From NCBI RefSeq assembly GCF_003018115.1, contig NZ_CP027458.1: a DNA stretch of 64,000 nucleotides; one strand, 5' to 3'. Position 1 is the stretch's first letter. Every line of letters starts with the position of its first letter. This document shows positions 26,601 through 29,600 of the stretch, piece by piece. Made by a program: the position numbers. This DNA is from Escherichia coli. Lineage in GTDB: Bacteria > Pseudomonadota > Gammaproteobacteria > Enterobacterales > Enterobacteriaceae.

Positions 26601-29600
26601 AGGAACACCGTTCAGAACACCACCGTTGAAGCCATTCACTTCAACATCCAGGCGGGTCGGCAGAACCGTCAGCAGGTCAAACGGCATGGTTTTTTCCGGC
26701 AGTACGTTGTCACACAGACGGTTCCACCACACCGATACATCCTCGTTACTCCAGAAGCCACACCAGTCACCTCTTTTTGCGGTGAAAAGTACGGTGATGG
26801 TATCCCTGACATCGTCCGGTAATCCTTCCCAGCGACGCTGTCCAGTACCGCTCTGCAGCCAGAGTTCATGCAGCATCAGGCAGTTTTGTTCATCCAGCAG
26901 TACACCGTTCTGCAGGTGTGTCAGCCAGCGGGTGAACGCGATATTCTCCGGCGATACAACGCCACGCCCGGCAGCCGTCAGTCCGGGGCATGGTTCAAAC
27001 CGCACATCTTCAGTGGTCTGCAGAAGTCCGGCACTTCCGGCCAGAAACAGCTGAATACCTTCATTTATGGCGCGGCGATAAAACGGTGTGACGGCACCAC
27101 TGGCCAGTCGTTTAATCTCAGCGATCTGTGCCGGTTCACCAGAAAAATGCATACGGTTACTGCACCAGTTTGGCATGGGAATTCTCCTCTCACATGCGGC
27201 CTCCATCAGGCCGTGCCGGCACGTTAACCGGGCTGCATACGAATGCAGGTGCGGCCCCGAAGCCGCAGCGCGTGGAGGAGGAACGACGAAACGTGACCGG
27301 GTGAGGAGGCCGGCGACAGCGACACACTTGCATCGGATGCAGCCCGGTTAACGTGCCGGCACGGCCTGGGTAACCAGGTATTTTGTCCACAGAACCGTGC
27401 ACAAAATGCTGTGGATAAGCTGGACACAGCACTCCACAGCAGGCATACAGCCACACCCTCAGAGAATTGATCGTTTTTTAGTCAGAACAATGACATTTGA
27501 CTGTGTGCGGATTCAGTTATTAGAATACTGTATATGCATACAGCAAAAAAGAGAAGGGAGATGAGAACATGATCCGCATTGAAATTCTTTTCGACCGCCA
27601 GAGCACAAAAAACCTCAAATCAGGCACACTTCAGGCGCTACAGAATGAAATCGAACAACGTCTGAAACCACACTACCCGGAAATCTGGCTGCGTATAGAC
27701 CAGGGCAGCGCCCCGTCTCTATCTGTCACAGGAGCCCGCAACGACAAGGATAAAGAACGTATCCTGTCTCTGCTGGAAGAAATCTGGCAGGACGACAGCT
27801 GGCTGCCTGCAGCATGAGTACCGTTTATCACCGTCCGGCTGACCCTTCAGGCGATGACAGTTACGTGCGACCGTTGTTTGCCGATCGTTGCCAGGCCGGT
27901 TTTCCTTCGCCTGCCACGGATTATGCTGAGCAGGAACTGGATCTGAACAGCTATTGCATCAGCAGACCTGCAGCCACCTTCTTTCTGCGCGCCAGCGGTG
28001 AATCGATGAACCAGGCTGGCGTGCAGAATGGTGATCTGCTGGTAGTGGACAGGGCCGAAAAACCACAACACGGGGACATCGTTATCGCTGAGATCGACGG
28101 TGAGTTCACCGTCAAACGACTGCGGTTGCGCCCACGCCCGGCACTGGAGCCGGTTTCAGACAGCCCGGAGTTCCGCACACTGTATCCGGAAAACATCTGT
28201 ATTTTTGGTGTTGTCACTCACGTGATACACAGGACGCGGGAGTTACGCTGATGTTTGCATTGGCTGATATCAACAGTTTCTACGCCTCATGTGAAAAAGT
28301 TTTCCGCCCGGACCTTCGCAACGAACCGGTCATCGTACTCAGCAATAACGATGGCTGTGTGATCGCGCGCAGCCCGGAGGCAAAAGCCCTTGGCATCAGA
28401 ATGGGGCAGCCCAGGTTTCAGGTGAGACAAATGCGCCTGGAGAAGAAAATACATGTATTTTCCAGCAATTATGCGCTGTACCACAGCATGAGCCAACGGG
28501 TTATGGCTGTTCTGGAGTCGCTTTCTCCCGCAGTTGAGCCCTACTCAATTGATGAAATGTTCATTGATTTGCGGGGGATAAATCATTGCATCTCTCCGGA
28601 GGTTTTTGGTCATCAGCTCAGGGAACTGGTAAAGAGCTGGACAGGACTCACCATGGGGGTGGGCATTGCGCCTACAAAAACGCTGGCTAAAAGTGCACAG
28701 TGGGCAACAAAGCAATGGCCACAGTTTTCCGGTGTGGTCGCGCTGACGGCAGAAAACCGTAATCGGATCTTGAAGCTACTGGGGCTGCAGCCAGTTGGTG
28801 AGGTCTGGGGAGTAGGACGCAGACTGACGGAAAAGCTGAATGCGCTGGGTATTAACACAGCACTGCAACTGGCGCAGGCTAACACGGCATTCATCCGGAA
28901 AAACTTCAGCATCATTCTTGAGCGTACGGTACGCGAACTCAACGGCGAGTCCTGCATATCCCTGGAAGAAGCACCACCGGCAAAACAGCAGATTGTCTGT
29001 AGTCGCAGTTTTGGTGAACGAATCACAGACAAAAATGCCATGCACCAGGCTGTTGTTCAGTATGCAGAGCGGGCCGCTGAGAAACTACGTGGGGAGCGTC
29101 AGTATTGTCGGCAGGTGACGACATTTGTACGGACATCCCCCTTTGCAGTAAAAGAACCCTGTTACAGCAATGCCGCTGTGGAAAAGCTTTCATTGCCACA
29201 CAGGACAGCCGGGACATTATTGCCGCCGCATGCAGAGCCTTAAACCATGTCTGGCGTGAAGGGTACCGCTATATGAAGGCAGGAGTCATGCTGGCTGATT
29301 TCACACCATCGGGTATAGCGCAGACGGGATTATTTGATGAAATCCAGCCCCGTAAAAACAGTGAAAAGTTAATGAAAACACTCGATGAACTGAACCTGTC
29401 GGGAAAAGGGAAAGTGTGGTTTGCGGGGCGAGGATCCGCCCCTGAATGGCAAATGAAACGGGAAATGCTATCGCCTTCGTATACAACACAATGGACTGAG
29501 ATCCCCATTGCTTCATTCTGATATATCAGAATAATTTTTTCATTTTAAGACGCACATCATTCATTGCCTCCTGCACCGAATCAGTAGCAGAAGGAGGCAT

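Follow-up and report, generated by a model that had tools for sequence, protein, structure and literature searches.

The 20-mer TACTGTATATGCATACAGCA, located at positions 27526-27545 of the window (the whole 64-kb stretch of DNA analysed here), is very probably the LexA operator of a plasmid-borne impCAB operon, and lies on a predicted promoter just in front of impC. The window comes from an E. coli virulence plasmid of the IncFIB/FII enterohaemolysin type. The identification of a LexA operator of impCAB is correct but already known, this arrangement having been on record since 1990, and it opens no new question on LexA regulation. For annotation, it is useful that a standard regulatory element is present and intact. 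SOS-inducible mutagenesis should nevertheless not be assumed for this plasmid because its polymerase gene, impB, is a pseudogene, a caution that extends to the many virulence plasmids of pUTI89 and pO86A1 type with this allele.

The box was read directly off the sequence and is given without a strand; its CTGT-N8-ACAG core occupies positions 27528-27543. The original prediction of a canonical LexA box upstream of impC was therefore borne out, and the spacing of 26 nt that it proposed holds for a count from the core, since 25 nt lie between the G of ACAG and the impC ATG at 27569. Counted from the end of the 20-mer, the spacing is 23 nt. Compared with the E. coli LexA consensus TACTG(TA)5CAGTA, the site shows a single mismatch over the 18 specified positions.

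A sigma-70 promoter is predicted on the plus strand at 27497-27526, with a -35 hexamer TTGACT (27497-27502), a spacer of 18 nt and a -10 hexamer TAGAAT (27521-27526). It agrees with the consensus at 10 of 12 positions, the consensus match being the only basis of the call, and it is the top promoter-like site between 27200 and 29800. The box starts at the last base of this predicted -10 hexamer and consequently covers the expected transcription start, which should be near 27533. Its location on the predicted promoter, so close to the impC ATG, is that of an operator. A Shine-Dalgarno sequence, GGGAG, was read off the plus strand at 27556-27560, 8 nt before the impC ATG. A search of the impC upstream region against Rfam returned no RNA family match.

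The bare CTGT-N8-ACAG motif occurs twice in the window against 0.77 occurrences expected, and two or more copies were found in 15 of 100 shuffled sequences. Since this count alone indicates no significant enrichment in the 64 kb, significance was assessed on the full consensus and on a position weight matrix (PWM). Matches to the full 20-mer consensus with at most 3 mismatches are expected by chance only 0.02 times in the window. The whole-window PWM scan, which had been put forward as a check together with the original prediction, used a matrix built from E. coli LexA sites. TACTGTATATGCATACAGCA obtained 23.8 bits whereas the runner-up in the 64 kb obtained 17.8 bits, and the maxima over 100 shuffles averaged 13.9 bits with a highest value of 18.9 bits. 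The impC box is the only site of the window scoring above every shuffled control, all the other matches falling inside the shuffle range. Its heterology index (HI), an approximate value derived from this matrix, is about 3.3, which is still within the range of strong chromosomal LexA boxes. It is also below the HI cut-off of about 15 that defines a LexA box (the criterion of Lewis et al. 1994, applied in PMC12211044). As a calibration, the same matrix gave an HI of 1.44 for the box of the IncI1 plasmid pTF2, for which the published value is 1.60 (PMC12211044). The sequence data support the reading of the impC site as a putative high-affinity-type LexA box in operator position.

Three genes follow the box on the plus strand. 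The first, impC (27569-27817), encodes a DinI-like protein of 82 amino acids, which matches the Pfam DinI family (PF06183, E=4e-18) and the E. coli DinI structure 1GHH (E=2.5e-6), and which RefSeq labels 'DinI-like family protein'. The second, impA (27814-28251), encodes a UmuD-like self-cleaving subunit of 145 amino acids, with matches to Pfam Peptidase_S24 (E=1.5e-24) and to the UmuD structure 8GMT (E=1e-36). Its Ala28-Gly29 pair aligns with the Cys24-Gly25 cleavage site of UmuD, and its Ser64 and Lys101 align with the Ser60 and Lys97 catalytic dyad. The third, impB (28251-29521), is a frameshifted UmuC-like Y-family polymerase gene matching Pfam IMS. In the list of open reading frames, stop and start codons overlap both between impC and impA (ATGA) and between impA and impB (TGATG), indicating translational coupling of all three genes as a single unit. 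They are at least 97% identical to the annotated impC, impA and impB of pN126, and Pfam, PDB and RefSeq annotation leave no ambiguity as to their identities. The coupled DinI-like, UmuD-like and UmuC-like genes of a TP110-type operon are all present.

On this basis, we infer that LexA occupies this copy of the operator. In an undamaged cell, a LexA dimer bound to the CTGT-N8-ACAG palindrome would keep RNA polymerase off the impC promoter. Upon DNA damage, RecA would become active, LexA would cleave itself and impC, impA and impB would be transcribed as one unit. ImpC would then act as a DinI-like modulator of RecA, and ImpA, like UmuD, would need cleavage, here at Ala28-Gly29, while ImpB would be the UmuC-like polymerase subunit.

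The operon is not intact, though. Alignment to intact copies revealed that impB has lost one C of a CCC triplet at 29195/29196, in codon 316, so that the reading frame ends at 29243 and encodes 330 amino acids instead of 423, namely 315 native residues followed by 15 out-of-frame ones. The gene is thereby split into two open reading frames, 28251-29243 and 29105-29521, which carry the N-terminal and the C-terminal polymerase domains, respectively. The truncated product lacks part of the little-finger domain as well as the C-terminal DUF4113 region, and with no full-length ImpB of 423 amino acids encoded, the operon is a degenerate member of its family. The same gap is present in pS19_141-a, the closest RefSeq plasmid (99.9% identical over 24 kb), where the gene is annotated 'frameshifted', and in pO86A1 and pUTI89. 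The exact 61-nt frameshift allele was found in 275 of 3,465 matching PLSDB records. A gap shared by several plasmids is not the read error of one assembly. A literature search on the impB frameshift in pUTI89-type plasmids returned nothing relevant.

Judging from the truncated reading frame, UV protection and mutagenesis have most likely been lost in this plasmid. Given the frameshift, SOS control would here govern ImpC, ImpA and a truncated polymerase, from an operator and a promoter that are both intact. The original view that a mutagenic-repair operon is under SOS control thus holds in part: the strong box in operator position, and the LexA response of a near-identical promoter, speak for the control, whereas the operon that is controlled has lost its integrity through impB.

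These data raise the question of whether the operator is a fossil, that is, an intact box in front of a decaying operon, providing SOS control without phenotypic consequence in this lineage. We consider this quite possible, while leaning slightly against it. The impB frameshift is common to the window, pS19_141-a, pO86A1 and pUTI89 among the 275 records, and an insertion sequence has destroyed the box and the promoter in pUTI89-type plasmids. Amino-acid changes in impC and impA also gather in the frameshift lineages. Between the window and pO86A1, impC differs by 3 synonymous and 3 non-synonymous codons and impA by 1 and 3, and no change was seen among three intact-impB plasmids (IncF, IncI1 and IncI-gamma), whose impC and impA are identical. 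Although very small, these counts suggest that constraint may be relaxed on the whole operon in the frameshift lineages. In contrast, impC and impA are open reading frames in every copy examined, and the promoter, box and ribosome-binding site of the window are untouched. A fossil operator would moreover be compatible with LexA binding, as this explanation disputes only whether the binding matters.

The LexA box of pUTI89-type plasmids is interrupted in its AT-rich centre by an ISL3-family element (ISEc53), whose transposase gene is separated from impC by a gene of the ClbS/DfsB family. The insertion has replaced the promoter and the CTGT half-site, leaving only ATATACATACAGCA. Disrupted loci were located in pUTI89 (approximately 744-903 of the extracted locus), pC16EC0292-2 (644-2535 of the extracted locus) and pKPN-7c3, and impB is defective in all three of these box-disrupted plasmids. 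The frameshift allele is found in pUTI89 and pKPN-7c3. In pKPN-7c3 and pC16EC0292-2, an IS21 element occupies the expected place of impB, and the polymerase gene is absent from the annotation. It could be imagined that the impC-impA pair has been kept as a polymerase-less SOS-modulating module in the frameshift IncF plasmids (at least 275 records), and that loss of the toxic polymerase then let the pUTI89-type plasmids tolerate an insertion destroying the box. We regard this scenario as unlikely, and the substitution pattern in impC and impA argues against a retained, polymerase-independent role of the pair.

Dowden et al. in 1984, Glazebrook et al. in 1986 and Lodwick, Owen & Strike in 1990 reportedly described imp and its regulation by the SOS system on the IncI1 plasmid TP110, and the operon is also said to have been found on the Shigella flexneri virulence plasmid by Runyen-Janecky et al. 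in 1999. TP110, pTF2 and the Shigella plasmid share with the window the order of the imp genes (impC-impA-impB) as well as their promoter and LexA box. Compared with the TP110/pTF2 type, the window copy is distinguished by its IncFIB/FII enterohaemolysin plasmid, by its frameshifted impB and by a spacing from box to ribosome-binding site that is 2 A residues longer. The strong box of pTF2, TACTGTATATACATACAGCA, has a published HI of 1.60 and is positioned at -21 from the impC ATG (PMC12211044). The box of the window departs from it only at position 11, where A is replaced by G, with computed HI values of about 3.3 and 1.4, respectively. The IncI1 plasmid pN126 has exactly the box of the window, and the G at position 11 is also found in an IncK2/Z plasmid.

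Five plasmids with a native upstream region, belonging to the IncF, IncI1, IncI-gamma and IncK2/Z groups, were aligned. They show no difference in CTGT, in ACAG or in either promoter hexamer, and the box varies at positions 2, 10 and 11 only. Since the whole imp module is 97-99% identical at the DNA level across plasmids, this conservation is weak evidence for the box and phylogenetic footprinting is of little value here.

The E. coli chromosomal umuDC operon is likewise preceded by a LexA-repressed promoter in front of UmuD-like and UmuC-like genes. Its LexA box, TACTGTATATAAAAACAGTA, is of the same CTGT-N8-ACAG type as the imp box and of comparable strength. The imp operon differs from umuDC in being plasmid-borne and in having a third, leading gene, which is DinI-like, and the cleavage site of ImpA is Ala-Gly instead of the Cys-Gly of UmuD. 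Other UmuDC homologues under LexA control are carried by mobile elements (plasmids or ICE), namely mucAB of pKM101, samAB and rumAB. Unlike imp, these are two-gene operons and are not known to contain an impC.

Functional data are available for the pTF2 operon. In an SOS-constitutive lexA mutant carrying pTF2, ImpC was increased 21-fold, ImpA 9-fold and ImpB 2-fold, these figures coming from proteomics with a multiply mutated lexA allele and not from a direct binding assay (PMC12211044). By analogy with this near-identical promoter, they support the notion that the impC promoter of the window would respond to LexA inactivation. Overexpression of impCAB is toxic and causes a severe growth defect (PMC10286972), a toxicity in view of which tight repression makes sense.

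That the site might instead be an AT-rich palindrome arisen by chance, or belong to another regulator, with no LexA role, finds some ground in the bare motif, whose two occurrences in the window amount to no significant enrichment. This is highly improbable in the face of the 0.02 matches expected for the full 20-mer, of a PWM score exceeding that of 100 out of 100 shuffles, of the operator position on a promoter before SOS-type genes, and of the induction published for the near-identical pTF2 operon (PMC12211044). It is just as hard to believe that the main target of the box is not impC but the divergently read DUF1281 gene (26250-27206, minus strand): the two genes do form a divergent pair with a common intergenic region, but the box adjoins the plus-strand -10 hexamer and stands 23 nt from the impC ATG against over 300 nt from the start of DUF1281, and a promoter scan found no promoter-like site on the minus strand overlapping it. 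Within this intergenic region, a feature-free segment of 55 nt in the annotation (27402-27456) is 86% identical to many plasmids; it may correspond to a conserved module boundary or to the DUF1281 promoter region.

Apart from the impC operator, the PWM scan of the full 64 kb yielded no convincing LexA box, whether close to psiB and ssb or elsewhere. The second-best match, TACCGGTTATTTATACAGGT at 37195-37214, obtained 17.8 bits and is located 247 nt upstream of traT; it misses the left CTG, scores inside the shuffle range and is probably due to chance. Further matches at 1696, 41740 and other positions all fall inside the shuffle range. Another LexA-like sequence, GACTGTGTGCGGATTCAGTT (CTG-N10-CAG, 27499-27518), overlaps the -35 hexamer and the spacer of the predicted impC promoter. 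With a PWM score of 10.45 bits, inside the range of the shuffled controls, it is indistinguishable from chance in the scan and is borderline at best as a second LexA site. Its counterpart in pTF2, AACTGAATCCACACACAGTC, is located at -48 with a published HI of 13.49 (PMC12211044). The sequence of the window has one mismatch more than this counterpart, the computed HI being 12.6 versus 10.8 for pTF2.

The genetic surroundings of the operon are those of an F-like leading region. An F-type nic-site-like sequence, GTAGTGTGTGGTGCTTT, is present on the plus strand at 9946-9962, in oriT, between traM and a transglycosylase (SLT) gene. It departs from the F nic region at 2 positions, and 0.2 matches are expected at 3 mismatches or fewer. 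Its location on the plus strand implies that this strand is the one transferred and that the leading region runs toward higher coordinates. The SOS inhibitor gene psiB (14833-15270, minus strand) was identified from the translation of its open reading frame and from the RefSeq annotation of pS19_141-a, and psiA (14117-14836, minus strand) is immediately downstream of it. The ssb gene, an antirestriction gene and a methylase gene are also on the minus strand, between oriT and impC. Hence this region is on the oriT-proximal side, the first to enter the recipient, and carries psiB, psiA, ssb and anti-restriction functions. The box had been described as right beside a leading region that encodes PsiB; psiB does belong to the same leading region, but it is about 12.3 kb away from the box and is transcribed in the opposite direction. 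The impC gene itself is approximately 17.6 kb from the nic-like site, which places impCAB at the far end of the leading region.

Alone among the blocks of the leading region, the impCAB genes have the same sense as the transferred strand. With the sense strand being the transferred one, there would be no transcription of these genes from incoming single-stranded DNA, unlike psiB and ssb. Extrapolating from F-plasmid biology, impCAB would be expressible only after synthesis of the complementary strand, at which point the LexA of the recipient could repress it. A functional link between PsiB and the repression of imp is plausible as a hypothesis.

Three direct repeats of about 570 nt, 77-98% identical, are also present in the leading region (12544-13113, 18177-18746 and 21440-22007). 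RefSeq labels part of the copies at 12544 and 18177 'single-stranded DNA-binding protein, frameshifted'. Folding of the first copy as single-stranded DNA gave a hairpin of about 200 nt on the transferred plus strand (z = -8.4). The repeats resemble Frpo/ssi-type single-strand promoters, which are known from the leading regions of F-like plasmids; RefSeq has probably misannotated the parts that it calls a 'pseudogene'. Rfam matches were obtained for FinP with the traJ 5' UTR (9049-9158) and for the sok antitoxin RNA (13596-13767, minus strand), both of which are expected for an F-like plasmid.
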